A stretch of 64,000 nt of DNA, from contig JAJREF010000001.1 of assembly GCA_047459655.1 (NCBI GenBank), positions 264,219 through 328,218 of the forward strand. The letters are read 5' to 3'. The translations under genes and the position numbers were made by a program. Source of the stretch: Rhabdochlamydiaceae bacterium (lineage in GTDB: Bacteria; Chlamydiota; Chlamydiia; Chlamydiales; Rhabdochlamydiaceae). Numbering within the stretch: position 1 is the first letter of the stretch; every line of letters starts with the position of its first letter. The notes under the pieces were generated by a model. The model did not search any database and had not been told where the DNA came from. It worked only from the letters and a program-made list of their open reading frames with translations. Positions 8,425 to 64,000 of this stretch are shown here, in pieces.

Positions 8425-10264
8425 ATGTGTGGAATATTTGGGTATGTAGGGCCTAGAATTCAGCCGAAAATTGCTTTTTAGGGTTAAAGAAGCTTCAATA
8501 TCGAGGATACGACTCTGCAGGAGTTGCAGGGATTGGGATCGATGATGGACAGCTCCACTTCTGCAAACAAGTCGGCACGATCGATGCGCTAACAACTGCC
8601 TGGAACAGCCGCCCTCCTGCTCACCTAGGCCTTGCAATTGGCCACACCCGCTGGGCAACGCACGGCAAGCCCTCCTATGAAAATGCCCATCCTCACTTCG
8701 ATGAGAAGTTCAATATCGCCGTCGTCCATAATGGCATCATCGAAAACCACAATAGCCTTCGCGATATGTTGAAAAGCTATGAAATCTCTTTTGAGACCGA
8801 TACAGATACAGAAGTGATTGCTAAATTGATTGCTTATTTCTACGAAGGTGACCTACTCACGTCTGTACGGAAAGCTCTTTCTTTGATGCACGGATTTTGG
8901 GCCCTTGCCGTTATTCATAAAAGCCATCCTGATATCATTGTAGCTGCCGCAAGAGAAAACCCCCTGATCATCGCGCAACATCAGCGCAAACAAGAAACCT
9001 ACATCTCCTCCGATCCAAATGCATTCCATCTCCCTGATCTCGATCTTATTTTCTTAAGAAATGATGAAATTGCCCTCATTAAATCAACCTCTGTTGAAAT
9101 CTTCGATGAAAGCCACCATCCTGTTGTCAAAACAACCGAGCGCATGATCCTAGACAATGAAACCCAAAGCAAGGGATCTTTTGATCATTTCATGCAGAAA
9201 GAAATCTTCGAACAACCTAAAACAATACAGCAAGCGCTCCACAACCGCTTCATTGAAGAGTTTGGAACGGTTGAATTTGAGAATTTCAATTTTACACCGC
9301 AGGAGCTTCTGGCTGTGAAGCGAATTGTCATTTTAGGCTGCGGTACGTCTTGGCATGCGGCAAGCATTGGAGCGCTACTTCTGGAAGAGAAAGCAAGAAT
9401 CCCTGCACAAGCAGAAATTGCTTCGGAATTTAGGTATAAAAATCCCATCATTACAGAAGATACGCTTGTGATTGCGATCTCTCAGTCGGGTGAGACTCTT
9501 GACACGATTGCAGCTGTTCGCGAAGTCCAAAGAAAAGGGGCTAAAGTCATTGGCATTTGCAACGTGCGTAAATTCCACCTTAGCAAGAGAAGTTGATTCT
9601 GTTCTCTTTGAAGAGCGGGTCCTGAAATTAGCGTCTGCTCCACAAAAGCCTTTACTTCTCAAATCACCGTTCTTTCTCTTTTTGCGCTTCTCATGGGAAG
9701 ACTCCACCATATTAGCAAGGAAGATGGACAAGCTTTCCTCAACGAGCTGCGCTCTCTTCCTAAAGTTATCGAAGAAATACTAGCCCAAAGCGACACTATT
9801 GAAGCGCTTGCTAAAAAATATGCCCATTTTGAGAACTTCTTTTTCTTGGCAGAAATCACATGCATATCACGAGTCTAGAAGCGGCCCTTAAACTAAAAGA
9901 AATCTCCTACCTCAACGCGATTGGCTACCCAGCCGGCGAGATGAAACACGGCCCTATTGCCCTAGCAAGCCCCGAACTTGCGATCATCGGGCTCTGTGGC
10001 AATCAAAAAACGTATGAAAAAACCCTTAGCAATCTCACAGAAGTCAAATCCAGAGGCACCCCGATCCTAGCCTTTGCTTTTGAAGGTTCTCGGGAAATTG
10101 AAAGGATCGCAGACGATGTCTTCTACCTACCCCCTATTTGCGATGAACTAGCCAGCATCCCCTTTTCTGTTGCCCTCCAGCTCGTCGCTTATTACATGGC
10201 CAAAGAAAGAGGCACTGACATCGACCAACCCCGTAATCTAGCAAAATCAGTGACCGTAGAATAA
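8425..10264 (+). CDS. glmS: glutamine--fructose-6-phosphate aminotransferase; frame broken at least 4 times
   Basis: The N-terminus MCGIFGYVG starts at 8425. HTRWATHG was read by eye in a shifted frame. ORFs 8766..9596, 9693..9878 and 9860..10264 carry the SIS domains and the ending NLAKSVTVE. The first shift is at the T5 run 8475-8479. Confidence 0.9.
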
Positions 10265-10433
10265 CTCTCTCATTTTGAACACATTACAAACAAAAAAATC
10301 TGACTATCGGTGTTGCAGATTTTATCTGTAATTAACTTAAAATCAAAAAGATGTGAAAACCACCGATGGCAGGCACTTGATTTTATTATTCAAATCTTAT
10401 AAAATGGTAATAAATATTTAAAAGGAGTGTTTT

Positions 10434-21410: not shown

Positions 21411-22296
21411 CTAAAACCTCCGATAAAATCTCATCTGGAATAGGACTACAATATTCCCCTCCAAACGGTAAAGGCTCCCCTATTTTTTGTAAAAGCACAA
21501 AACGGGGCATCCCTTCTTTAGATTTTTTGTCTCTTGCCATTGCATTTTTTAGCGCTTCTTGAGAATAGAGAATCTCTTTTTTGGAAAAAGGGTTTGAATG
21601 AGGCTCCAATCCTTCTCTTTCAGAAGACCCATACGATAGGCACACTGACATTCTACCCGGACTCCTAGACTCACAGCTTCTCCGTGGGACATTTCATATT
21701 TAGAGAGGCGCTCAAGAGCATGGCCTACGGTGTGTCCCAAGTTGAGCAAGCGCCGCCGACCTATTTCTTGATCATCAAGCGCGATGATCCTACGCTTAAC
21801 CTCAATTGCCTGAAAAATGTCTTGCGTATGCAAAAGGCTCTCATCGGCAATGAGACCCATTTTCATGATTTCTACTTTCCCGTTATACTTTTCTTTCTCT
21901 GGAAGTGTTTTTAAAAAAAGGGGATCGATGATCACTTTTTGTGGATGGTAAATAGCCCCAATCATGTTTTTTCCAAGAGGAGTATTGACCCCATTTTTAC
22001 CCCCAATAGCAGCATCCACCATTCCTACGAGTGTTGTTGGGATTAAAATGAGTGGAACACCTCTACAAAAAGTAGCTGCCAAATAGCCTGCCATATCTGT
22101 AACGACCCCCCCCGAGGCCTATAATCACGGTGTCCCTGCCATGCCCTGATTCCAAAAGCAGATCTTCTAGCTTTTCTTTCGTCTCTCTTGTTTTATACTT
22201 TTCTCCAGGAGGAAAAGAAAAAACAGACACATTTCTATTCGCATATTTCCCGTATAGAGCTTCTACGGTATGATCTGTGATCATTGCATACTGCAT
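21376..22296 (-). CDS. aroB: 3-dehydroquinate synthase; frame broken twice
   Basis: ORFs 22063..22296 (GRDTVIIGLGGG), 21549..22094 (IPTTLVGMVDAAIGGKNGVN, LNLGHTVGHALE) and 21376..21651 carry the N-terminal, middle and C-terminal parts. Confidence 0.85.
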
Positions 22297-22299
22297 GTT

Positions 22300-23378
22300 T
22301 TACAACCTGGCACAGCGGTTAAGGAGAAGAGCATCTGCTAGCACTAGAGAGAGCATTGCTTGCACAACTGGAACAGCTCTAACTGCAACGCAAGGATCAT
22401 GTTTAGAGCCTGATGGCAAATGGAAAACGCCCGGTTGTTTCTCTAAAGAAAGCGTTTCTTGCTGGGCATATATGCTCGATGTTGGCTTAAAGGCGACAGA
22501 TCCCATAAGAGGCATGCCTGTAGAAATACCTCCTAAGACACCACCTGCGTGATTGGTTTTTGTTGTCACTTTCCCCTCTTCACAAAAAAAAGCATCGTTG
22601 TGATAAGAGCCTTGCATAGAAACAGAAGAAAAACCAGACCCTATTTCAAACCCCTTGGTTGCAGGGATAGAAAGCATCGCCTTCGCTAAATTAGCTTCTA
22701 ATTTTTCATACACAGGATCTCCCAATCCCGTTGGAAGACCTAAGGCAACAAAATTAATTGCTCCTCCAAGAGAGTCCCCTGATTGCTTGACCTCTGCTAT
22801 TTTTTGTTTCATTTCTTCCTCTTTGACTGGGTCAGGACAAAAAATAGTGCTTTCTTCAATCAAGTGTAAACAAGAAAGATCAACCTCTGCACATATGCCC
22901 CCAACCTGCGCAAGATAGGCAAAACAAGAGACTCCAAAATGAGCAAGTAGTTTTTGAGCAATAGCACCAGCTGCAACCCTGCAGGCCGTTTCCCTTCCAG
23001 AAGCTCTTCCCCTCCCCTATGATCAAACACTCCATACTTCTCTAAATAAGTATAGTTAGCGTGCCCAGGTCTTAGCAAATGCTTCACTAAGTTGTATTTT
23101 GTAGAATCAGGATTACAATTGGGGATGAGAATAGAAATCGGAGCGCCCGTTGTTTTTCCCTCAAATACGCCTGAGAGGATTTCAGCTAAATCAGATTCTT
23201 GTCTAGGTGATGTCAGAGGATGGTTCCCCGGAGATCTTTTTCTCAGCGCTTTTCGAACATCTTCCTCAGAAATTTCTAGTCCTGCAGGACAACCATCGAC
23301 GACAACGCCGATAGCTTTTCCATGAGATTCTCCCCATGTCGTGATCTGCAAGAGAGTTCCAAATGAGTTATGTCCCAA
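22300..23378 (-). CDS. aroC: chorismate synthase; frame broken once
   Basis: TTG start at 23378. N-terminal ORF has [21 protein letters not shown] and [11 protein letters not shown]-terminal ORF 22300..22863 has GGISTGMP and [13 protein letters not shown]. The junction is near 23000. Confidence 0.9.
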
Positions 23379-23794
23379 ATTGCCTCGTAGATAGATACTC
23401 TCCGAGAGTACATATCCTCAAATTCCCTTTCAATATCTTTTCCTAAAAAAAATGCAGGATAAGGCTTTTGCAAAAGACGCGCTTTCACAACTGCTTTTTC
23501 TTCTTTGATGTAGATGATCTTACCAATCTTTTTAAATAAGGCAACATTGTCAGGATCAAGAATAGCTCCACCCCCTGTTGCAATGACGGCACGTTCTACG
23601 GTTTCTAGGAAGGCAATCGCTTGTTTTTCAGCTAATCTAAAGGCCTCTTCTCCTACTTTTTCATAAAAAGTCCGGCAGTCATCTGCTATGAGATAATCTG
23701 TATCGATAAAATCATAGCCAATTTTTTTAGCTAAAGCCTTGCCAAACGTTGTTTTCCCACATCCCTTAAACCCGCATATAACTAGATTACTCAA
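23276..23794 (-). CDS. aroK: shikimate kinase (3' end overlaps aroC, uncertain)
   Basis: Walker [18 protein letters not shown], plus DTDYLI and [11 protein letters not shown]. Confidence 0.85.
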
Positions 23795-25053
23795 TATGAG
23801 CTCCTAAGCCTTTGAGTTGCTCAAAAAAGCGTGCATAACTTTTAACCACACATTCACTCCCTTCGATAATCGAACCTCCTTCAGCCCCTAGGCTGGCAAC
23901 TGCCAGTGACATTGCCATACGGTGATCAGCGTGAGATTCTAAAAAAGCACCTTTTAAATCAGAAGACTTTACTGTAACCCCATCCTTTTGCTCTGTGATA
24001 TGCGCGCCCATCTTTTTCAACTCTGCGACAATGCAACTAATACGATCTGACTCCTTTTTGCGAGCAATTGCTCCCCCAATAAGTTTAGTTGTTCCCTCTG
24101 CAAAGCACCCTACAACAGCTAAAAGAGGAAGAGCATCGATAAACTCATTTACATCGACATCTACCCCCTGCAATTTAGGTCCTTTAAGCACCTGGATTGT
24201 TTTTTCCAAAGGATCAATTTTAATACGCGCTCCCATGCGCTGCAGAAGAAAAATCACCTCCTTATCCCCTTGAACATCGTCGATATCAACATCCGTCAGA
24301 GTGAGCTCAGAATGAGTGATGATTGCAGCTACAATCGAATAACTAGCAGAACTCAGATCAGAGGGCACTGTGAAGTTAAAGCCGTGAATGATAGATCCCC
24401 CGGAAGGAAATATCTTTCAAAACGATCATGCTCATAAGCAATACCTAATCTGTCAAACCAATCCAACGTCAACCGAATCCAAGCCTTCTCACCAGGGTTC
24501 TCCACAAATAGCTCTGTTGCCCCTTGCGCAAAGGCAGAGGCAATCAGTAGCCCTGAAATAGGCTGAGAATCTTCCCCATTTACAAGAGCAGCCCCCCCCT
24601 TAGTGGCCCTTTGACGATGATAGGGGCATGCCCATCTCCTCGCAAAGAGACAGCAAAAGCACCCAATTGTGAAAGGCCCTCCAAAAGCGGCAGAACAGGC
24701 CTAGAATGCCTTATTGAGTGATCGCCAGTAACAACGCCATATCCGGGGAAAAGCGCTAAAACAGCCCCTACAAAACGTAAAACCTGCCCAGAATTACCCG
24801 CATCGATAACATCTTCTGGAGGGTGTAAATGCCCCCTAATTTCTAGGCGCTCATCAAAAACCGTAATATGGGCTCCCAGCTGCCTACAGGCCTTGATCAT
24901 TGCCTCGGTATCAGGGGAGTGGAGATAATTACAAATTACTGACTCTCCATGAGCCAGTGTGGCAAACAGAATCGCTCTTAATGTATGTGATTTAGAAGGA
25001 GGAACCTGGATAGTTCCCCCCAGAGAAGAGGGCCTTAAATAAACCGAGACCAT
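23787..25053 (-). CDS. aroA: 3-phosphoshikimate 1-carboxyvinyltransferase (EPSP synthase); frame broken at least twice
   Basis: N-terminal ORF 24580..25053 (VPPSKSHTLRAILFATLA, DAGNSGQVLRF). C-terminal ORF 23787..24368 (DHRMAMSLAVASL). The middle part, 24368-24600, is readable only with frame changes. Confidence 0.9.
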
Positions 25054-25689: not shown

Positions 25690-25778
25690 TATAAAACCTC
25701 CCTTTTAAAGAAGCTTATAACGAACCTGTGAAAAGCTGGCAATTAAAAGAAAATGTTTTAACATTTGACGAACCTTAA

Positions 25779-25940
25779 GGAGCCTCTGGATAAGTGCTTT
25801 GTCAGAGATTGCTGATCAATTTTTCGAAGAAGACGATTTTGGAGAGCGCAGCTAACATGCAGAATGTTCGTGAGTTCGAAAAATTTAGTATTCGCAAAAA
25901 TTGAAAGCAAGATTCGGCAAATGACTTGTCCAGAAACTCC
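25779..25940 (+). mobile_element. 162-bp MITE-like palindromic element, copy A
   Basis: The termini GGAGCCTCTGGATAAGTGCTTTG and CAAATGACTTGTCCAGAAACTCC are inverted repeats. The element is flanked by TTAA at 25775-25778 and 25941-25944. It is about 90% identical by eye to copy D. Confidence 0.8.
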
Positions 25941-26182
25941 TTAAAGTGCAGAACTTATTCCTTCACTTAAGACATTTTCCTTGTTAAAAAAAAGCATGTA
26001 TTTTTCCTTAGCCCTTCTCACATATACCATCACTTTGTGTGAAAATAGAATCTGATGGGAAAACAAGGCATAACAAGACCTCTCTAGCAACGCCAATGAA
26101 AAGCCCCGTCCTTGTAAAAAAAGATGGTATTTCCAACTGTAGACTCATTAGGAAACACCATCTAATTCTACTTACAAGAATT

Positions 26183-29358: not shown

Positions 29359-29575
29359 GAACGCAGTGTTTAATAACTTCTTTATCAATATGGGGTTTGC
29401 AGGATATGAACTCGTCTAATGGAACATTATTTGGAATCAGCCTTTCGACCCCTTGACTGTCTCTGTAGACCATGTCTTTATCTCTAAATTCCTGCATTAA
29501 CCATGATTTTATAGATCGCTATTAACGCTCATGCCCTTAAGGAATTTCTGGAGAAAGATCACGTATTAACATTAA

Positions 29576-29737
29576 GGAACCTCTGGACAAGTCATTTGCC
29601 GAATCTTGCCGCCAATTTTTGCGAATACTAGATTTTTCGAACTCGCTAACATTCTGCATGTTAGCTGCGTTCTCCAAAATCGTCGTCTTCGAAAAATTGA
29701 TCAGCAATCTCCGACAAAGCACTTGTCCAGAGGTTCC
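29576..29737 (-). mobile_element. 162-bp MITE-like palindromic element, copy B (inverted relative to A, C and D)
   Basis: GGAACCTCTGGACAAGT...ACTTGTCCAGAGGTTCC, flanked by TTAA at 29572-29575 and 29738-29741. A degenerate end-like sequence, TTAA-GGAATTTCTGGAGAAAG, lies at 29537-29557. Confidence 0.85.
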
Positions 29738-29953
29738 TTAAGGCTCAAGCTAGCTGTTTAATAAAATTTTTAATATATTTTAATGCTGGCTAAAACAAAA
29801 ACATTATCTTATTTTTCAATGCTTTAGGGCAGTCCATAAACTATGCAAGATAAAAAAAAATTTAATTTACTAAAAATCAAACATTATATAATATATACGC
29901 AACATCAAATTAATAGATGTTTTTTATAATTAAAAAAATAAAAAGAGGATTAT

Positions 29954-30481
29954 ATGTCACCAATAATAACATGCGTCAAATACGTAATGGAATCATTTCC
30001 TAGCTTTACGCTGATGCCGAGTAAACATATTACAGAGACTTCAGACAAGATATTTCGATTCGCTGTTGCTTCTACACACTCAGCTGGAGAAAAAGCGGAA
30101 AAAATGATCGATTTTCTTGCCACACAAAAATCCTTGACCGTTATTCCTAAAGAAGCATTGGACTACACAATAACTTTTTTCAATGACCTACATAAAGAAA
30201 TAAATTTTTCAACAGCTCACGCTTTTAATAATATACATATTAACCTTCAAAGATACAGGAACCTTAATACGTATATGAATCTAGGTGGACTTGGCTTGTT
30301 ATGTGGTGGGCTTGTAGGACGTGCCTATACTCCTGAGGCAAACAAAAAAACCCGCTGGGCTTATACAGCACTTGGGGTTGCAGGTGCCGCTTGTATCGTC
30401 TTAGCAAGTGTACACACCCACTTTGCTACAAGAAAGATAATAGCAACGTTAATTCAACCAAAATTGATTGGACTGTTATGA
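29954..30481 (+). CDS. hypothetical protein with a bilobed hydrophobic domain (Inc-like candidate)
   Basis: 175 codons behind an AT-rich leader, with AGAGGA at 29944-29949. Two TM-like lobes, LGGLGLLCGGLVGRAY and WAYTALGVAGAACIVLASV, are about 13 residues apart. Confidence 0.5.
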   Translation: MSPIITCVKYVMESFPSFTLMPSKHITETSDKIFRFAVASTHSAGEKAEKMIDFLATQKSLTVIPKEALDYTITFFNDLHKEINFSTAHAFNNIHINLQRYRNLNTYMNLGGLGLLCGGLVGRAYTPEANKKTRWAYTALGVAGAACIVLASVHTHFATRKIIATLIQPKLIGLL

Positions 30482-30534: not shown

Positions 30535-32275
30535 CTAGACAACATCTGCCGCACAACGGAAACCATAGGTGCCGTTCATGGTACCTGGGTTATTGCGATG
30601 GCGATGAGAGCTACGCATATCTTCTTTGAGACTTTTCCAGCAGCCACCCCTTAGGACGCGGTAGACACCTTGGACAGGACCCCTGGGATTATTGGGTTCT
30701 TGGACGGAAATGTCATAGTAATGGTAATCATACCAATCTTGGCACCACTCGTAGACGTTACCTGCCATGTCATAGAGTCCAAAAGCGTTGGGTGGATAGC
30801 TCATCACACCGGTTGTATCTGAGCTAAAGAAATTCGCTTGTGATCTTTCAATGGTTTTTCCTGTGGGATAGATACTATCTTCCGAGGCAGAAGAGGCTGC
30901 AACTTCCCATTCAGCTTCTGTAGGAAGTCTTTTTCCAACCCACTTGGCATAGGCGACTGCTCCATACCAAGCAACACCTACAACAGGGTGCCTTGCATAC
31001 CCAGACTCGATTGTGAGTTTACCACCAAACCGCTTGATGCGAGAATCACGCAACCGAATGATATCGTTGTTATTATGATCTTTTTCCCTCCCATTGCTTC
31101 GAGGAATCTGACAAACTGCTCATTTGTTACAGGGTGCTTATCGATAGCAAAAGAGCTGAGGTTCACGAGATGGCGAGGGATTTCATCCCTACCACCTGAA
31201 AGGCTTCCTCTATAAAATGCGCCCCTCTGATGATGACCATATCTGTTAAGAGCGGCTCGATCTCTTTGTGCTCTTGCGGTTTGGGAAGGTACTTAGCAAC
31301 GGTTGTCTCTAGCTGAAAAATAGCGGCAGGATCAGCATCAAACTGAGGCCTTACAATTTCCCCTGGTTTGAGGATGGGTTTAGGTGCATCTTGAGATGAC
31401 TTGGGAGAAAGATGTAAGATCTCTTCGAGAGCTTGCTGCAGGCAAGCAGGCCTTTTCGATGGATCTTGTTGGAGACACGCTTTGATGAGTTTATCCCAGT
31501 TTAGTTTATAGTGCGGTGTAATCTCTGAAGGAAGAGCAAAAACACCCTCAGGAAATTGCTGGGTGAGAAGGTAATAAACAACGACCCCAAACGCATAGGT
31601 GTCTGTTTTTGTGGTTTTTGTATGGTAAGAAGGAGATTTTTGTTCAGGTGCTAAAAAAAGAAAAGTGTGTAAAAAGGCCTGATGCAGCTTGGGGAGCTCT
31701 TGTTCACTTTTACCTACACTTTCAGACACTATTTTGTATGTTTTAGCAAGCAAGTTCCCTGCTCCCATGATACGCCCTAGGCCAAAGTCAGAGAGATGAA
31801 CCGTGATACCCGCTTGCCCTTTTTTGACCAAGATATTGGAAAGCTTGAGCCCTTCATGAGAAAAGGGAAGGCCATCTTGTATTTTTTCATGGGCAAAATC
31901 AAGAGCAGATGCTATCTGGGAAGCAATACTTACAACCTCTGCCTCTTCAAGAGAACCTTCTTGCTCTATAAGATAATCAGCAAGGTTGAGTGATCTTCCT
32001 TCATTAAGAACACAATCGGTCACAAGAAAATAAGTGCCCTGATCTTCTGATACGGTATGTATTTTGACAATGTTGGGATGGTCAAGGGTAGCTAAGAGAG
32101 AGACTTCTTTTTCAAATCTATATAAAAAATCTGCATCAAGACCAAAATCTGCTGATAAGATTTTTAACGCATAGGGTCTTTTTAAAAAGCGGTGCTGCGC
32201 TAAGACAACCTCTCCTAGAGCGCCCTCTCCAATCGTCTTGACAATCTCATAATCCCCTAAGCAGGTCTTTAACAT
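30535..32275 (-). CDS. pkn1: Ser/Thr-kinase-like domain fused to an FGE-sulfatase (SUMF1) domain, Pkn1-like; frame broken twice
   Basis: ORF 31163..32275 has [15 protein letters not shown] and LSDFGLG. ORFs 30978..31166 and 30535..31053 have [36 protein letters not shown] and GFRCA. Confidence 0.8.
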
Positions 32276-32322
32276 ACATTCTCACAGCTTTTGTATTACT
32301 TTCATGATTTCATCTAATTTGG

Positions 32323-34304
32323 TCAAGGGTGGAAGACACTGACCTCTTTTACAGATATATACCGTTGTTTCTTGGTTGATAGAGATTTTATCTGCATGTA
32401 GGAGCTGATTTTCCTTCCAAAAAACCGCTGCATGGGGCAAAAACAAGACCCCAAGGCATTGAGGATTTCTTCCTTGCCAGATTTCTTGTCATTCAGCGCT
32501 ATCACAACTGTGGGAGCCCCATTGTCTAGATAACGCTGAAGAGCCATCAGGTTGTAGCTTGCTGCAGGGGCAAATACGTCGATATAGCCCTTGGCTGCTT
32601 TTAAAATGTCTTCTGCTTGCCTTAAATACCCTTCCTCCCAGGTGAGTTGATAGAGGCGGATAAGATTTTCTGCATGCACTCCGTTGCCAGAAGGCTCTGC
32701 GCCGTCATAAAAATCACACTTGCGTAAAATAAGAGGATCTTTCCCATCCGTCTGGTAGAAAGCTCCCTCTATCTCTTTGAATTCTTTCTCAGCAATTTTT
32801 GTAAGGGTAATAGCCCACTCTAAAAACTCACCACCGGCACCCCTTTCAAAAAGTGAAAGAAGCCCTTTAATCAGATACGCATAGTCTTCGAGTGTCGCAG
32901 AAAATTTGACATCTTTTGCAATGTAGCGGCGCAACAATGTAGATCCATTCCACATATTATTTTTTAAAAAAAGAGCCGCTTTCATTGCAGCTTCTAGATA
33001 TCTTGGCTGATTGAAAGCCGTAGAGGCCTGTGCAAGCACATCGATCATGAGGCCATTCCAGGCTGTTAGGACTGTCTCATCTTTAAAAGGTCGCACTCTA
33101 GCAGATCTTCTTTCAAAAAGGGTCTTTTTCCACTCTTCTGAGTTTTTCTTTAAACACCCCTTCATCGAGCAACATAGAAGAGGCAAATTCTTCTATAGCA
33201 GCTTCTATATGAAGCACATTTCTCCCCTCGAAATTTCCTTGATACGTGACATCGAAAAGAGCTGCAAATCTCTCCGTCTTCCCCAGGAATGACATCTTGG
33301 ATCTCTGCAGGGGTCCAGGTGTAATAAAAGCCTTCTTTCCCTTCTGTATCTGAATCTTCCCCTGAGAAAAAACCACCTTCTTTATATTGCAGCTCACGCA
33401 AAACATAATCGAGGGTATTTATTACAGTCTCTTTATATACATCTTTCCTAGAGAGTTTCCATGCTTCTAAATACGCTTTGGATAAAATAGCATTATCATA
33501 GAGCATTTTTTCAAAATGGGGAATCGTCCACTGTTCATCGATAGCATACCGTGCAAATCCACCCCTAGATGATCGTAGATTCCACCTCTGCACATATGAT
33601 CAAGAGTAAGATCGACGTAATAAAGAGCCCTGCTGTCTGCTTGCACCTTTGTATAAGCTAGTAAGAACTCTAGCTGGTACCCCAAGGGAAATTTGGGAAC
33701 CCCTTTTAATCCTCCATTAACAGGATCGGCGATCTTAAAAATTTGCTGAGCCCCTTCAACAACCGATTCTTTAGAGGAAGTTCATGCCCCGTTGCATTCG
33801 CTGTGTGTGCAAAAATCTCAACTAGTTTAGCTGCCTCTTCAAGAAACACACTTCTTTCCTCACTTTGCCACATCTCACGGATGTGAGAGATCAGCTGAGG
33901 AAAACCTACAAATCCATTTTTATTCACAGGGGAAGGTAAGTGATCGCAAAAAAGGGTTGTAAGTCAGGCGTTAAAACCAGATTCAAAGGCCAGCCGCCTC
34001 CTGATGACATCAAGACCTGAGCAAATTCCATATAGATCGCGTTCACCTCAGGGTGTTCTTCTCTATCGACCTGAATATTGACAAAAGCCTCATTCATCTG
34101 CTTAGCAATTTCAGGATTTTCGAAAGATTCCTTAGCCATCACATGGCACCAGTGACATGTCGAATATCCAATCGATAGAAAAACGGGCTTATCCTGTGCC
34201 TTAGCCGCCTGAAAAGCATCAGAGCCCCAGGAATACCACTCAACAGGGTTACTTGCATGTTGTAAAAGGTAGGGGGATTTTTCCTTAGCTAACCTATTTG
34301 CCAT
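32323..34304 (-). CDS. thioredoxin-domain protein of the DUF255/YyaL type with a six-hairpin (N-acylglucosamine 2-epimerase-like) domain; frame broken at least 5 times
   Basis: N-terminal ORF 33924..34304 has [18 protein letters not shown] and [20 protein letters not shown]. Fragments 33706..33927, 33467..33685, 33162..33593 and 32323..33186 continue the protein. Confidence 0.8.
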
Positions 34305-34685: not shown

Positions 34686-34825
34686 CTCACCTAAAATGCT
34701 TTAATTCTTTACTCATATAACCACCTGTATTCAAACAGAGCACCAGCTTTCCTGATATTCCATTTTCTTTGTTAAAATCAATAGAATACAGAGATGCTCA
34801 ATTGATTATAAGAGGTAATTCATAA

Positions 34826-34987
34826 GGAACCTCTGGACAAGTGCTTTTGTCGGAGATTGCTGATCAATTTTTCGAAGATGACGATTTTAGAGAACGTAGC
34901 TAACATGCAGAATGTTAGAAAGGTCGAAAAATCTAGTATTCGAAAAATTGGCAGCAAGATTCGGAAAATGAATTGTCCAGAGGTTCC
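34826..34987 (+). mobile_element. 162-bp MITE-like palindromic element, copy C
   Basis: GGAACCTCTGGACAAGTGC...AATTGTCCAGAGGTTCC, flanked by ATAA at 34822-34825 and 34988-34991. It lies in the divergent rodZ/rnhC intergenic region. Confidence 0.85.
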
Positions 34988-35033
34988 ATAAGATACTTCT
35001 TGTGTTTTTTTTCGGCGCTGCAAAAATCCAAAC

Positions 35034-35930
35034 ATGACAAGTTCTTTTATCGCAACCATCGACCTCTCTTTAGCAGCAAAGATGCAAGGAGATCTTTTAG
35101 AACAAGGGTTTACCTTTACCACTCCCCCTTACACAGTATTTTCAGCCCAAAAACAGGGCGTCTCTTGCACGCTCTACACATCGGGTAAATTAGTCGTGCA
35201 GGGAAAAGAAAAAGAGGAATTCATTACGTTCTACCTCGAGCCAGAAATTTTACAACAACTATCTTTCTCCTACCCCGAGCTCGGCGTTGATATGGAAGCG
35301 AGAATAGGGGTAGACGAAGCAGGAAAGGAGATTTTTTTGGCCCTCTCTGCATAGCAGGCGTGCAGGCAGATGAAGAAGGAATCAAAGCCCTCCTATCGAT
35401 CGGTGTCAAAGACAGCAAAAAAATGTCTGACACCGCCGTTCGCACGATGGCCAAAAAAATCAAAGAGAGATGCCCTCACACCGTCATTGCTATATCCCCT
35501 AAAAAATATAATGAACTCTATGAAACTTTCCATAACCTCAACCACCTACTCGCCTGGGGACATAGCACAGCGATTGCCGAACTCATTGAAAAAACTGGAT
35601 GTAAAAATGTTCTTATCGATCAGTTCGCAAGTGAGCACGTCGTGATCAATGCCCTCAAGAAAAAAATGTAGTTGCCAATTTAAAACAACGCACCCATGCA
35701 GAAGCAGATCCCGTTGTCGCAGCCGCCTCGATTCTTGCAAGAGCCGGTTTTTTAGAAGGCTTAGAGCGCCTCTCAGAAAACATCAAATCATTCTCCCCAA
35801 GGGAGCCAGCGCGCTCGTCCTCCAAATGGGGGTTACCCTCGTCCGCAAGCACGGCAAAGAAATTCTTACAGAAGTGGCCAAGCTTCACTTCAAAACCACC
35901 CTCGAAGTCTTAGCAAGAGCAAGTAAATAA
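35034..35930 (+). CDS. rnhC: ribonuclease HIII; frame broken twice
   Basis: The N-terminal ORF has the RNase HIII-specific domain (VFSAQKQGVSCTLYTSGKLVVQGK) and GVDEAGKG. ORF 35360..35671 has GVKDSKKMSD. A third frame carries the C-terminus. Confidence 0.85.
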
Positions 35931-42784: not shown

Positions 42785-42853
42785 GAACCTATCCCGATAA
42801 TAAGATTTCAAAGAACCCAAAAATCAACAGAAATTTATTATCGGGATAGATTC
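42785..42853. repeat. 69-bp palindromic element, an internally deleted relative of the 130-bp element at 60144
   Basis: GAACCTATCCCGATAATAAGATTTC...GAAATTTATTATCGGGATAGATTC matches the outer parts of both arms of the element at 60144..60273. Confidence 0.7.
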
Positions 42854-47787: not shown

Positions 47788-49200
47788 ATGAGGCGTGCAA
47801 TCTTTCTTCTTCCGATTTTGCTATGCTCCTGCTTTGCGAATAGAGCAGCAATCAACCCCTATTCCTACGCCCCACAAAGGCAAAATAAATTTTGGAAACC
47901 AGGCGGTAAAGATAAAGAAAAGATCGAAGGGTTAGAAGAAGACACCGGCCCTCTTTCTTTAGCAGAGATTGTTGATATTTCGCTGAGAAATAATCCAGAA
48001 ACAAGGGTTACCTGGGCAGATGCAAGGGTTGCAGCTGCACAGTATGGACAATCGCAGAGTTCTGATTTTCCCACATTAACAAGCACCTATGCATGGTCAA
48101 GATTTAGAAACGTCTTAACAGCAGCAGATGGTTACGGCGGAACGGTTGCTGAACCCTATTTCTTTAGCCAGTGGGGCCCGCAGCTACAGCTTTCTTACAC
48201 CCTCCTTGATTTTGGGCAGGGAAGGGCTGCTGCGCAAACAGCCAAAGAGCTTTTATATAGCGCAGGCTACATCCATAACCGTAAGATACAGACGGTGATT
48301 CAGCAAGTCACTTCTGATTATTACAGCTACATCTACCAGCAAGAGCTTTTAAAAGCTAATGAGCAAGATGTCATTACAGCTGAAACCACGTATGAAGCAG
48401 CCAAGGTCAGTTTTGATGCGGGCATTAAAAGTCTTTCCGATCTTCTCCAGGCCAAAACAAAATTACTCCAAGCTCAGATCCAGCTTGTGACTCAAAATCA
48501 GACTCTTGTCGTTTCTTTAGCGAACTTGCTAACCGACATGGGGCTAAAAGCAAATCAAAAAATTCCCATTCGCAACATGCCTGAAGTTCCTCCCATTGAA
48601 GAAATGCTGGCAAGTGCGCAAGATCTTCTCAATGTCGCTTTAGAAAAACGCGCAGACCTGTTAGCTGCGCAAGCAAAGGTTCAATCGGAAGAGTACAATA
48701 TCGTCGCTGTACGGAGGCAATTTTTCCCAACGGTGACCTATAACCTGAACTTTGGAGAGACCTCTTATTCAAAAATAGGAAGTGACCGGTATGACTTTGT
48801 AACCACATTTTCTTTGAACTTTCCTATTTTTTCAGGATTTTCAACTCTGAATTCTCTTAAAATAGCAGAAGCTAATAAGGAAAAAGCAGAGGCAGAGCTT
48901 GCTCAAACACAACTTCAAGTTGTGAAAGATATCACGACATCCCACAGCGCTGTAGAGCAAGCTTTCGAAGCCCTCAAATTTTCTTCTGAGCTTTTAAAAG
49001 TAGCAGAAGAGCAGTACCAAGTAGCAATTGCCCTCTACAAAGCAGGCACAGGTAATATCTTAGAAGTCGTCTCTGCACAGGGTTCTCTTGCCAATGCAAG
49101 AGCGCAGTGTGCAAATGCTAATAATGAGTGGTTCACATCTCTCATCAATTTAAGTTATGCAGCTGGCTCTTTACAGCCTCCGGAGGCCAAAACTCTATGA
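47788..49200 (+). CDS. TolC/OprM-family outer-membrane efflux protein (lipoprotein signal)
   Basis: 470 aa with lipobox ILLCSC. It has the two-repeat OEP architecture, with DFPTLTSTYAW and FFPTVTYNLNF segments. Confidence 0.85.
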   Translation: MRRAIFLLPILLCSCFANRAAINPYSYAPQRQNKFWKPGGKDKEKIEGLEEDTGPLSLAEIVDISLRNNPETRVTWADARVAAAQYGQSQSSDFPTLTSTYAWSRFRNVLTAADGYGGTVAEPYFFSQWGPQLQLSYTLLDFGQGRAAAQTAKELLYSAGYIHNRKIQTVIQQVTSDYYSYIYQQELLKANEQDVITAETTYEAAKVSFDAGIKSLSDLLQAKTKLLQAQIQLVTQNQTLVVSLANLLTDMGLKANQKIPIRNMPEVPPIEEMLASAQDLLNVALEKRADLLAAQAKVQSEEYNIVAVRRQFFPTVTYNLNFGETSYSKIGSDRYDFVTTFSLNFPIFSGFSTLNSLKIAEANKEKAEAELAQTQLQVVKDITTSHSAVEQAFEALKFSSELLKVAEEQYQVAIALYKAGTGNILEVVSAQGSLANARAQCANANNEWFTSLINLSYAAGSLQPPEAKTL

Positions 49201-49201
49201 A

Positions 49202-49364
49202 GAGACCTCTACACAACTCTGGTAAACCGCTAAAATCGCGCTTTTTCCGCAGATTTTATTTTTCATATCTCGCCTACTCCATTGAGTATGTCTTCGATAT
49301 AAAATCAAAAATTTGCAAAAAAATCTTCGATTTTTTCGATTTGCCAGAGTTGTGCAGAGGTCTC
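49202..49364. mobile_element. 163-bp MITE-like element inserted between the tolC-like and MFP genes
   Basis: Its 21-bp terminal inverted repeats, GAGACCTCTACACAACTCTGG and CCAGAGTTGTGCAGAGGTCTC, differ at one position. It is flanked by the direct repeat ATGAA at 49197-49201 and 49365-49369. Confidence 0.8.
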
Positions 49365-50435
49365 ATGAAATGGGCATATTGGACTATTCCCCTACTTTTG
49401 CTTGGCTGCTCTAAAAAAGAGGTTCCACCTCCTACGCCCCCCTATGTTACAACCGGACAGGCCTCCTCCCAAAATGTCCCTTTTTATTTTGAATATGTAG
49501 GACACGTTGAAGCCTACCAATCGGTTGAAATCAAAGCTCAAGTCACCGGACTCATCAATGGACAATACTTCACCGAAGGACAAGAGGTGAAAGCAGGAGA
49601 TCTCCTTGTCACTATCGATGACCGCCCTTTTAGAGCAGCCCTCTCTAAGGCAGAGGCTGAACTTGCACAAAATATTGCAACTTTAAGGCAAGCAAGAGAA
49701 ACCGTTGAAAGGTACTCTCTCCTAGTAAAAGAAAGCTATATCTCTCAACTTGACTACGATCAGTTTGTGACAAACGTCTACACAGGTGAAGCAGCTATTA
49801 AGCAAAATTATGCAGATATTGAAACAGCTACGATCAACCTCAATTACTGCACAATCACCGCTCCCATCACTGGTGTTACAAGCAAGCTGCTCATCAACGT
49901 AGGAAATTACATCCCCGTCGGCGGAGAGAATCCCCTGATGAGCATTAACCAAGTCAAACCCATCAAAGTTGAGTTCAATGCTCCTGAAAAAGATCTTCCC
50001 TATATTACGCTTGCACAAAGCAAAGAGCCCCTCAAAGTGATTGCTTACTTGCAAGGAGCCCCCATTGAAGGAAAATTGCACCTGATCGACAACCAAGTCA
50101 ATACGGGGACGGGCATGATCCTTTTACAAGCGGTTTTTCCCAATGAAGATATGCGTCTATGGCCTGGAGAATTTGTTGATGTACGCGTCATTGTTGAGAT
50201 CAAAAAAGATGCTACAGTTATTCCAGCACAAGCTGTTTTACTTGGACAAGATGGACCTTATGTCTATGTATTAACAGAAAATAGGACGGTTGAATTGCGC
50301 CCTGTTTTACCTGGTCTCAAGGAAGGTAGCATGGTAGTCATTGATAAAGGAGTTTTTCCTGGAGAAACTGTGATTATCGAAGGGCAGATTAATCTTTCTC
50401 CTGGCGCCTCTGTTAGCATTAAAAACAAAATATGA
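49365..50435 (+). CDS. RND efflux membrane fusion protein (AcrA/MexA family lipoprotein)
   Basis: ATG at 49365 gives MKWAYWTIPLLLLGCSKKE (lipobox LLGC). YVGHVEAYQSVEIKAQVTG and NLNYCTITAPITG are HlyD/MFP-like. Confidence 0.85.
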   Translation: MKWAYWTIPLLLLGCSKKEVPPPTPPYVTTGQASSQNVPFYFEYVGHVEAYQSVEIKAQVTGLINGQYFTEGQEVKAGDLLVTIDDRPFRAALSKAEAELAQNIATLRQARETVERYSLLVKESYISQLDYDQFVTNVYTGEAAIKQNYADIETATINLNYCTITAPITGVTSKLLINVGNYIPVGGENPLMSINQVKPIKVEFNAPEKDLPYITLAQSKEPLKVIAYLQGAPIEGKLHLIDNQVNTGTGMILLQAVFPNEDMRLWPGEFVDVRVIVEIKKDATVIPAQAVLLGQDGPYVYVLTENRTVELRPVLPGLKEGSMVVIDKGVFPGETVIIEGQINLSPGASVSIKNKI

Positions 50436-60143: not shown

Positions 60144-60273
60144 GAACCTATTCCCGATAATAAGGTTTCTCTCGATTTTTGGACTCTTTTGCTAGGGTAA
60201 TATCCACCGCTTATATAACCCCTCGCAAAAGAGTCCAAAAATCGAGAGAAACCTTATTATCGGGAATAGGTTC
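60144..60273. repeat. 130-bp palindromic element with perfect 49-bp inverted arms and a 32-bp spacer
   Basis: The left arm 60144-60192 (GAACCTATTCCCGATAATAAGGTTTCTCTCGATTTTTGGACTCTTTTGC) is the exact reverse complement of 60225-60273. Confidence 0.85.
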
Positions 60274-61594: not shown

Positions 61595-61646
61595 TATTTG
61601 CAAAAATTGGCAACAAGATTCGGCAAGTGACTTGTCCAGAGGTTCC
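61595..61646 (+). repeat. 52-bp right-end fragment of the 162-bp MITE family
   Basis: TATTTGCAAAAATTGGCAACAAGATTCGGCAAGTGACTTGTCCAGAGGTTCC matches the last third of the full copies. It starts 3 nt after the glycosyltransferase stop codon. Confidence 0.75.
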
Positions 61647-61650
61647 TCAA

Positions 61651-61812
61651 GGAGCCTCTGGATAAGTGCTTTGTCGGAGATTGCTGATCAATTTTTCGAA
61701 GACGACGATTTTGGAAAACGCAGCTAACATGCAGAATGTTAGCGAGTTTGAAAAATCTAGTATTCGCAAAAATTGGCAGCAAGATTCGGCAAATGACTTG
61801 TCCAGAGGTTCC
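61651..61812 (+). mobile_element. 162-bp MITE-like palindromic element, copy D
   Basis: GGAGCCTCTGGATAAGTGC...GACTTGTCCAGAGGTTCC, flanked by TCAA at 61647-61650 and 61813-61816. Confidence 0.85.
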
Positions 61813-61983
61813 TCAAGGAGCATTTAACGCATCAGCCTCTTCATAGTCCACATCTTCATTCTCATCTCCACCATCTTGCTGCCACTGTTGCGTATTTTTA
61901 TCCTTCTCTACGCGAGATTCCTTCTCTTTGGGGCTAGAACACGACGCAAAAATAAATACCAACAAACCTAAGCATGTATGCAT
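61813..61983 (-). CDS. possible small acidic lipoprotein (56 aa, below the ORF-track cutoff)
   Basis: Read by eye: MHTCLGLLVFIFASCSSPKEKESRVEKDKNTQQWQQDGGDENEDVDYEEADALNAP. It has a signal peptide with a lipobox-like FASC. Its TGA is the TCAA target repeat of MITE copy D. Confidence 0.3.
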   Translation of the reverse strand: MHTCLGLLVFIFASCSSPKEKESRVEKDKNTQQWQQDGGDENEDVDYEEADALNAP

Positions 61984-62079
61984 GATCTTATACCATTATA
62001 GGCAAGAGGCCTAAATTTTTTTTCAGTTTACTCTTGCACCTCATTCATTAACACATCTGAAAACAGGACGTCAATGTTA

Positions 62080-62140
62080 TTTTCTAGCGATTTCAAAAAA
62101 TTGATCAGCAATTTCCGATAAAGCACTTGTCCAGAGGCTC
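62080..62140 (-). repeat. ~60-bp end fragment of the 162-bp MITE family (inverted)
   Basis: ...AAAAAATTGATCAGCAATTTCCGATAAAGCACTTGTCCAGAGGCTCC matches the left third of the family in reverse orientation. It ends 56 nt upstream of the peptidase ATG. Confidence 0.7.
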
Positions 62141-62196
62141 CTTCAAATTCTTCATGTCTATTTGATTTTTTAACGCTAAAAAACTATGCTTATGAT

Positions 62197-64000
62197 ATGC
62201 AAAAAACATATCCTTGTGGACTTTGGCCTTCTTCTATCACAACTGCCATGGTTACCTCTGCACAAAAGCGCTTTGACAACATCGTGATCGACAATGGAGA
62301 AATCTATTGGAGTGAAATGCGCCCAACAGAGGGTGGAAGATGTGTCATTGTCAAAAGAGCAAAAGATGGGAAAATCGAAGATGTTCTACCTCCTCCCTAC
62401 AGCGCGCGCTCAAGGGTTCACGAATATGGCGGATTATCATTTGCTGTAGGACAAGGAGCTGTCTATTTTGTAAACGACAAAGACCAACGCATCTACATCA
62501 AAGACAAACCCCTGACAGAAGCAGGCACTCGATTTGCAGATCTTCGAGTTGTAGGCAAACATCTCATTGCAGTTGGGGAAAAGGGAAAGATAACTTCCTT
62601 GCTGCTATTGATATTAGCACAGGCAAACACGAGATCATAGCCTCAGGAAAAGATTTTTATGCCTCCCCTGAATTAAGCCCCGATGGAAAAAAACTCGCTT
62701 TTTTGACCTGGAGCTGCGCTCGCATGCCATGGGATGGCAGTGATTTATGGGTAGGGGATTTTCAAGAGGCTCATCTATCAAATATGCAACAAGTCGCTGG
62801 CAGTGAGACAGAATCGATTTTCCAGCCTCAGTGGTCTCCTCAAGGAATATTACATTTCATCTCTGACAAATCAGGATTTTGGAATTTATATAAATTAGGA
62901 AAAGAGGGCGTAGAAGCTATTTGTCCTAAAAAGGCAGAGTTCGGATTGCCTCAGTGGGTCTTTGGACTTTCTACCTATGCTTTTTTAGGAGATCAAATCT
63001 TAGCCACTTATGAAGAAAAAGGGGTTTGGCAGGTAGCCACTCTCCCTCCTTTTAAAAAACTAGAGATCCCAGGAAGTTATTTCTCTCAGATTAAAATCCA
63101 AGATGGGCACATCGCTTTTATTCAAGGCTCTTTTTCAGAAGGCAAATCGATTGCTTATCTCCCCCTTCCAACCGTTGACTTCTGAAAGCATTCAGACGCT
63201 TTCTCACAACCGAGTTCCCCATCTAGATAAGAAAGACTTTTCTATCCCTCAATTCATCTCTTTTCCTAGCAACAACGGAAGAGTCGTCCACGGATTTTAC
63301 TATCCTCCTGCTAACCAAAACTTCAAGCTTCGGCCTGAAGAGCTGCCACCTCTCATTGTCAAAACGCACGGAGGCCCCACAGGATGTGCCCCCAATACCT
63401 TTGATCTTAAAATCCAATACTGGACAAATAGAGGGTTTGCCATACTCGATGTTGACTACAGTGGAAGTACGGGCTATGGAAAAGCCTACAGAGATCTACT
63501 CAAGGGAAACTGGGGTATCGTCGATGTGGAAGATTGTGAGGCGGGCGCTAAATTTTTGATCGAACAGAAACTTGCAGACCCCCAGAAGCTTGCCATCACC
63601 GGAGGGAGTGCAGGAGGTTTTACAACACTTGCCGCTCTTACCTTTGGAAAGATGTTCACGGTGGGAGCTAGCTACTACGGCGTCTCAGACCTCTCTCTTT
63701 TAGCCAATGAAACCCACAAGGCAGAATCCCACTACCTTGATCAACTGATTGCTCCTTATCCAGAGAAAAAGAGATCTACGATGCTAGATCCCCTATCTTC
63801 TCCGTTGATAAACTCCACTGCCCCGTTATTTTTTTCAAGGCCTTGAAGACAAAGTTGTCCCTCCGAACCAAGCAGAAAAAATGTATACCGCCTTAAGAAA
63901 GCACGGCATTCATACAGAGCTCATCATGTATGAAGGAGAGCAGCACGGTTTTCGCAAAGCAGAAAATATCCGAGACTCTCTTGAAAAAGAACTCGCCTTT
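62197..64000 (+). CDS. S9-family serine peptidase (prolyl oligopeptidase / acylaminoacyl-peptidase-like), runs off the right edge; frame broken at least 3 times
   Basis: The beta-propeller part is in ORFs 62197..62640 and 62340..63185 ([19 protein letters not shown]). The hydrolase part is in 63103..63846, with the nucleophile motif ITGGSAGGF. The final frame reads [12 protein letters not shown]. Confidence 0.8.

Follow-up and report, generated by a model that had tools for sequence, protein, structure and literature searches.

A dispersed 162-bp palindromic repeat, very probably a MITE family, in the genome of an uncultured Rhabdochlamydiaceae bacterium

Results

Copies of the repeat within the window

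The window, by which we mean the whole 64,000-nucleotide stretch of DNA analysed here, contains four full copies of a repeat, each exactly 162 bp long, with pairwise identities of 87-97%. Copy c1 (25779-25940, plus strand; TTAA target site duplication, TSD, at 25775-25778 and 25941-25944) lies 89 bp upstream of the start codon of the FKBP-aro operon (25689, minus strand). Copy c2 (29576-29737, minus strand; TSD TTAA at 29572-29575 and 29738-29741), whose terminal inverted repeat (TIR) is perfect over 17 of 17 positions, is located between tpx and an Inc-like 175-aa ORF. Copy c3 (34826-34987, plus strand; TSD ATAA at 34822-34825 and 34988-34991) occupies a divergent promoter region, 47 bp upstream of the rnhC ATG, and copy c4 (61651-61812, plus strand; TSD TCAA at 61647-61650 and 61813-61816) is found between two convergent genes, encoding a glycosyltransferase and a 56-aa lipoprotein-like protein, with the stop codon of the latter falling inside the TCAA duplication. 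These are the copies that had been reported from the sequence-only reading, with the same coordinates and strands. The 56-aa ORF itself (61819-61985, minus strand) looks unannotated, carries a lipoprotein-type signal (…LVFIFASC…) and ends in a TGA stop; the JGI annotation has a 56-aa gene at the same place beside c4 (L026, 8711-8881).

The terminal 17-mer GGAACCTCTGGACAAGT has 11 matches in the window at three mismatches or fewer, against 0.12 expected from dinucleotide-preserving shuffles. These matches comprise both ends of the four full copies and solo ends at 15311, 61630-61646 and 62125-62141, and a repeat finder run on the window recovered the same families. The consensus of the terminus is GGA(A/G)CCTCTGGA(C/T)AAGT, which agrees overall with the form GG(A/G)(A/G)...(C/T)AAGT proposed earlier but differs at position 3, where A is invariant. 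The TIRs of the full copies are 17 nt long and perfect to near-perfect, and they reach approximately 26 nt across a 2-nt bulge. Every copy is an imperfect palindrome, and the consensus hairpin holds 65 pairs around GCTAACAT-GCAGA-ATGTTAGC, as expected from the claim that the element folds back along its whole length around a central hairpin with a 5-nt loop. Folding, which had been proposed as a check, gave -87.8 kcal/mol (z = -14.7) for one strand of c2 and -65.7 kcal/mol (z = -8.6) for the other. At 162 bp the element has no coding capacity for a transposase; its open frames are palindrome-mirrored 54-codon reads with no family match.

Several partial copies accompany the full ones. The right end of a truncated older copy (element positions ~111-162) is found at 61595-61646 on the plus strand, adjoining c4 via the shared TCAA. 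An inverted half element, representing the left end (positions 1-52 clearly, perhaps to ~70), lies on the minus strand at 62074-62143 (clear part ~62092-62143), in the divergent region upstream of an S9-peptidase/TolB-like ORF that starts at 62197. A left-end fragment (positions 1-42; 15311-15352, plus strand) has TTAA before it (15307-15310). ORF 13458-15347 runs into this fragment, which contributes its final 12 codons and stop codon, and the end of this ORF is 9 bp from the stop of a convergent aldolase gene. All three fragments had been listed before, the second as 62080-62140. The fourth fragment of that list, at 29541-29571 (plus strand, preceded by TTAA and adjoining c2), is doubtful: it matches the TIR at 12 of 17 positions, shows no terminus match at three mismatches or fewer, and may at most be a degenerate remnant of the element. 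The statement that all copies are intergenic holds for the four full copies but not for the fragment at 15311, which ends an ORF.

Two further hairpin elements were observed in the window. The first (49202-49364) is palindromic and 163 bp long, with 37-nt arms that are 86% complementary; its termini, GAGACCTCTACACAACT, match the terminus of the main family at 12 of 17 positions, its interior is unrelated, and it has direct ATGAA/ATGAA flanks. Its position coincides exactly with an apparent ATGA overlap of the stop of ORF 47788-49200 and the start of the following gene (ATG at 49365), and both genes therefore keep their signals. This element probably represents a related MITE subfamily. The second (60144-60273) is 130 bp long with 54-nt arms that are 98% complementary, and GAACCTAT in its ends, GAACCTATTCCCG..., is also found in the terminus of an IS5-family insertion sequence (IS) on the Rhabdochlamydia oedothoracis plasmid (NZ_CP075588, 32663-33583). 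A 26-nt solo end of this element is present at 42785-42809.

Copies beyond the window and lineage restriction

The host contig corresponds to Ga0496538_1545 (1,340,546 bp) of JGI metagenome 3300045937, which at NCBI is part of a Rhabdochlamydiaceae MAG with locus tags LVR00_. The aldolase encoded at 15357-16412 is found with identical sequence on Ga0496538_1545, and the window matches that contig with 99.986% identity over 21 kb, the JGI and NCBI assemblies differing by three single-base indels in this interval, all in short homopolymers. Several genes that are intact in relatives are split in the host (window 20232-25053, 30535-34304 and 35034-35930; locus L025, 10954-11761). AroA is encoded as 157 + 193 aa versus 422 aa in relatives and a kinase/FGE-sulfatase as 370 + 172 aa versus 580 aa, a DsbH-like gene, which encodes 675 aa in relatives, is fragmented, and rnhC and lgt are in three pieces each. 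Given the 1-nt homopolymer indels between assemblies, some of what looks like gene decay here may instead stem from errors in the long-read consensus.

The prediction that copies would occur beyond the window was borne out by seven further full copies: three at locus L025, one each on contigs L012 and L015, and two that annotated ORFs of the same MAG read through. The documented total is thus at least 11 full copies, at nine or more loci. Nine of them have been sequenced (four in the window, three at L025, and those of L012 and L015) and show pairwise identities of 83-99%, while the two copies read by ORFs are known via the proteins. Locus L025 is on the same 1.34-Mb contig, approximately 135 kb away, and holds full copies at 10240-10401, 13688-13848 and 13853-14014. 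We scanned sequence collections for exact matches to an invariant internal 21-mer of the element, and among the metagenome contigs (JGI/NCBI set) the only real matches were L012 and L015, short contigs from other metagenomes that carry one 162-bp copy each, 95-96% identical to the window copies. Their flanks are unlike the window, and no flanking sequence is common to the copies. L012 encodes an L33 protein identical to that of the host MAG, and contig L032 (JACCDG010687320.1), from the same assembly as L015, contains the same L33 gene, from which it follows that the host organism is present in both assemblies. Position 1 of L032, a contig end, falls at about the place that the MITE copy occupies in L012, which suggests that the repeat breaks short-read assemblies of this organism.

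The same scan of 185,579 species-representative genomes, a set in which the host species is evidently not included, gave seven single chance matches, none accompanied by a terminus. A terminus-pair pattern had no match in viral contigs, blastn of the consensus against PLSDB plasmids gave two chance matches of ~20 nt only, and the 9.85 kb directly to the right of the window contain no copies. The density is accordingly four full copies in 73.9 kb of contiguous sequence which, if uniform, would extrapolate very roughly to 70 copies in the genome.

Searching translated frames of the element against 5.8 billion proteins matched three ORFs (P0011, P0012 and P0013), all on the 1.34-Mb host contig. 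One of them corresponds to copy L025a; the other two, the M61 peptidase P0011 (LVR00_04415) and P0013 (LVR00_02715), read through copies at further loci. In P0011 and P0013 the C-terminal or central ~54 residues are translated MITE, the M61 peptidase ending in ...PLDRSFAESCCQFLRTLDFSNSLTFCMLAAF..., so the element creates chimeric ORF ends in the annotation.

Target site duplications and tandem arrangements

Perfect 4-bp direct flanks are present on eight of the nine sequenced copies (TTAA five times, and ATAA, TCAA and TAAA); the ninth copy, which is the most diverged, is flanked by TTAT and TCAT. ATAA, TCAA and TAAA are non-palindromic tetramers and are repeated in direct rather than inverted orientation, indicating that the flanks are duplications and not an extension of the inverted repeat. 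The sequence-only reading had assigned TTAA, TTAA, ATAA and TCAA to the four window copies and regarded them as target duplications; the tetramers are exactly as it gave them, and the direct repetition of the non-palindromic ones bears out their interpretation.

An arrangement of two elements separated by 4 bp occurs at two loci, in the window at 61595-61812 and in L025 at 13688-14014, where the latter two copies of that locus are arranged as TTAA-E-TTAA-E-TTAA (E being the element). Such tandems are attributed to the fact that each insertion of a TTAA-seeking element regenerates its target at both borders.

Orthologous sites in relatives

Two kinds of relatives keep the synteny tpx - pseudouridine synthase - two ORFs - FKBP - aroA, with FKBP proteins at least 90% identical to that of the host and genes 79-85% identical at the DNA level. 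No copy was found in ~45 kb of syntenic DNA of relatives, which includes the sites of c1, c2 and c3. At the c1 site (relatives L017 and L023) the block upstream of FKBP is kept and the element is missing. At the c2 site the relatives have a 96-bp spacer, versus ~1.1-1.18 kb in the window, where the element and a lineage-specific Inc-like ORF are found. The hydrophobic segment of this 175-aa ORF (29954-30481) is bilobed, as is typical of chlamydial inclusion-membrane (Inc) proteins; the ORF shows no family match and belongs to a ~1.1-kb stretch missing from the closest relatives. For the c3 site, located in L030 and L029 via its HTH/RodZ-like neighbour, conservation reaches ~10-20 bp from both element borders, and between these conserved borders the relatives have unrelated DNA or a different gene, and no element. 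The orthologous sites, whose inspection had been suggested together with the original description, are thus free of the element for c1, c2 and c3, in alignments that are not base-precise at the ~80-85% nucleotide identity of these relatives, a single unduplicated TTAA not being directly observed.

Identity of the family and proposed mechanism of insertion

We conclude that the family is very probably a non-autonomous DNA transposon (MITE) of an uncultured Rhabdochlamydiaceae bacterium. Its members are noncoding and shorter than 300 bp, carry TIRs and TSDs, occur as dispersed copies and are missing from orthologous sites; among the structural features of MITEs, the exception is a parent IS. Further copies elsewhere, together with the absence of the element at the sites of relatives, support the mobile-element reading with which the analysis started.

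In the mechanism that we propose, the 17-nt termini would be bound and cut by a transposase supplied in trans, which would make a 4-nt staggered cut at a TTAA-like target, and repair of the gaps would then duplicate the four target bases on each side of the element. With TTAA rebuilt at both borders, new copies would sometimes insert beside old ones, giving element-TTAA-element tandems.

Possible functions at the RNA level

No sigma-70-like promoter consensus was found in any copy, and a terminator scan gave one copy-specific terminator-like site only, at background frequency. The earlier suggestion that the copies supply promoters or terminators is therefore not supported, as these consensus scans gave background only. 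Effects on neighbouring genes through a long RNA hairpin, or a role in RNA stability, are possible.

The stability of the hairpin on its better strand raises the question of whether the repeats could be a structured-RNA family, i.e. a regulatory or processing hairpin kept by selection instead of spread by transposition. In all nine sequenced copies the same strand has the better fold, by 4.5-30 kcal/mol, the consensus foldback register holds nine G.T and one C.A, and three pairs show a stepwise A-T/G-T/G-C or C-G/T-G/T-A series. Against this, neither covariation (112/500) nor the percentage of paired positions (147/500) exceeds that of column shuffles, and the bias among copy-specific changes (14 G.U versus 8 A.C cells) is not significant, from which it follows that the strand asymmetry is a property of the founder sequence. 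The copies show no consistent orientation with respect to adjacent genes, and variable target duplications and insertion beside or inside ORF ends are features of transposons. The element has no Rfam match at the gathering score, and at E <= 1 the best match is the hairpin-shaped plant MIR2606, with 36.9 bits versus a gathering score of 139.7. We consider an origin as a structured-RNA family to be very unlikely.

It is slightly easier to imagine, although still improbable, that a family spread by transposition was later co-opted as a strand-specific RNA element, with selection for a double-stranded hairpin that would act, for example, as an RNase III substrate. Such co-option would account for the one-strand folding advantage, the 9:1 excess of G.T over C.A and the A-T/G-T/G-C series. 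If it were true, the hairpin could tune the stability or read-through of the FKBP-aro, rnhC and tpx transcripts in a chlamydial symbiont. Even less likely than co-option is a variant with no bacterial transposase, in which the enzyme that moves the TTAA-targeting element comes from outside the chromosome.

The mobilising enzyme and remaining alternatives

For the MITE reading preferred here, an IS5-type (IS5 family) transposase is a tentative candidate for the mobilising enzyme, with a likelihood that we place slightly below even; it is suggested by the 4-bp T/A-rich duplication and the terminus GGAA..T..G.ACAAGT. The combination of a 4-bp duplication and a terminus starting with GG is one that we take to point to the IS5 group. 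An Escherichia coli copy of IS5, 1195 bp long, ends on the right in GGAAGGTGCGAACAAGT and lies between duplicated TTAG tetramers. This right end matches the MITE terminus at 12 of 17 positions (chance ~1e-4 for a single comparison), but the comparison was a selected one and should be read as a lead and not as a test. With respect to the IS5 target YTAR, TTAA (five of nine flanks) fits, and ATAA, TCAA and TAAA fall outside. Table S4 of PMC9723776 records IS5-family elements in Rhabdochlamydia, from the IS1031, IS427 and ISL2 groups, and the IS5-family element of the R. oedothoracis plasmid has the terminus GAACCTATCTTGAATT, which matches the MITE terminus at 10 of 17 positions.

We searched ~94 kb of host DNA (of 1.34 Mb) by tblastn with the transposases of E. 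coli IS5 and of the IS630, IS30 and IS5-family elements of the R. oedothoracis plasmid, and found none. Among the best 120 relatives of a Rhabdochlamydia IS5-family DDE transposase none is on the host contig, and no terminus matching the MITE is present on the R. oedothoracis plasmid. The youngest pairs of copies are 98-99% identical, which suggests that an enzyme was available recently. A piggyBac-like origin, which was considered on account of the TTAA flanks, is unlikely; only five of the nine flanks are perfect TTAA, and the ends differ, those of piggyBac starting with CCC.

The element could also belong to the IS630/Tc1-mariner type and duplicate TA only, the outer T and A of TTAA being part of the element or of a target preference. 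Five of the nine flanks are TTAA, with a central TA, and IS630-family elements are among the most abundant in R. oedothoracis (PMC9723776) and are also found on its plasmid. The TCAA and TAAA flanks would, on the other hand, mean duplications of CA and AA and not TA, the outermost A of ATAA is repeated on both sides of c3, which a 2-bp model cannot explain, and the plasmid IS630 transposases had no tblastn match in the ~94 kb of host DNA. We regard this type of origin as highly improbable.

The concentration of four copies and several fragments in 47 kb of the window could point to a local segmental duplication, or to a regulatory box that is repeated in one region and does not move. This is hardly credible for copies that are also found at a distance of 135 kb and at further loci whose flanks are unrelated, have no flanking sequence in common, carry their own 4-bp duplication each and are missing from the same sites in relatives. 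Sequence comparison thus confirms what appears to be a lineage-restricted, mobile MITE family and not a local duplication. REP/BIME elements, which are RAYT-mobilised 20-40-bp palindromes with GTAG/CGTC heads and no target duplication, are ruled out by the length of 162 bp, the GGA(A/G)CC termini and the 4-bp duplications.

Discussion

Significance of the family

A full-text search of a literature library found no description of MITEs in Chlamydiota, and work on genome reduction in Rhabdochlamydia counted transposase-bearing insertion sequences only. The family is previously undescribed, while the kind of element is ordinary and leaves the understanding of MITEs in general unchanged. Its relevance lies in the fact that a transposase-free family, present here at about one copy per 15-20 kb, escapes IS counts that are based on transposases. 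Its consequences include spurious or chimeric ORF ends (M61 peptidase P0011, 832-aa ORF), copies in promoter regions and, as L032 suggests, broken short-read assemblies. Cataloguing the family would improve the annotation of these MAGs, would provide a marker for strain typing, and would help to trace how these symbiont genomes evolve and how active transposition has recently been in an obligate intracellular lineage.

Comparison with known systems

The family resembles IS5-family elements in its 4-bp target duplication at a T/A-rich tetranucleotide (TTAG for the E. coli IS5 copy) and in its terminus, GGAACCTCTGGACAAGT sharing 12 of 17 positions with GGAAGGTGCGAACAAGT of IS5, and the IS5 family is present in Rhabdochlamydia. 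It is unlike IS5 in having no transposase gene, in its length of 162 bp versus 1195 bp, in a foldback interior unrelated to IS5, in that three of nine targets fall outside YTAR, and in that no cognate full-length element was found among ~94 kb of host DNA and in the protein search.

Correia elements (CREE/NEMIS) of Neisseria are intergenic MITEs of ~100-160 bp with inverted termini of ~26 bp. They are often located beside genes, can form long RNA hairpins, duplicate TA, and carry promoter and IHF-site features. The family described here is similar in size and in its gene-adjacent setting, but differs in its 4-bp duplication, has no promoter or terminator consensus and shows no sequence relationship to them. 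Rickettsia palindromic elements (RPE) are ~100-150 bp long and insert in frame, without clear terminal repeats or target duplications. Like them, the family is palindromic, resides in an obligate intracellular bacterium, and has some copies that are read through by ORFs (P0011, P0012 and P0013). RPE-like in-frame insertion was nevertheless rejected, as the element together with its duplication lengthens the site by 166 bp, a number not divisible by three, only the mirrored frames are open, and ORFs that enter a copy end within it or soon after.

MITECca01, from the Cardinium endosymbiont of Oedothorax gibbosus, is a 240-bp element derived from IS982, with its parent ISCca4 in the same genome; it is lineage-specific, having multiplied within the genome of an intracellular symbiont whose sister strains lack it (PMC9769881). 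In terms of lifestyle it is the closest published precedent for the family described here, whose host belongs to a different phylum, the Chlamydiota.
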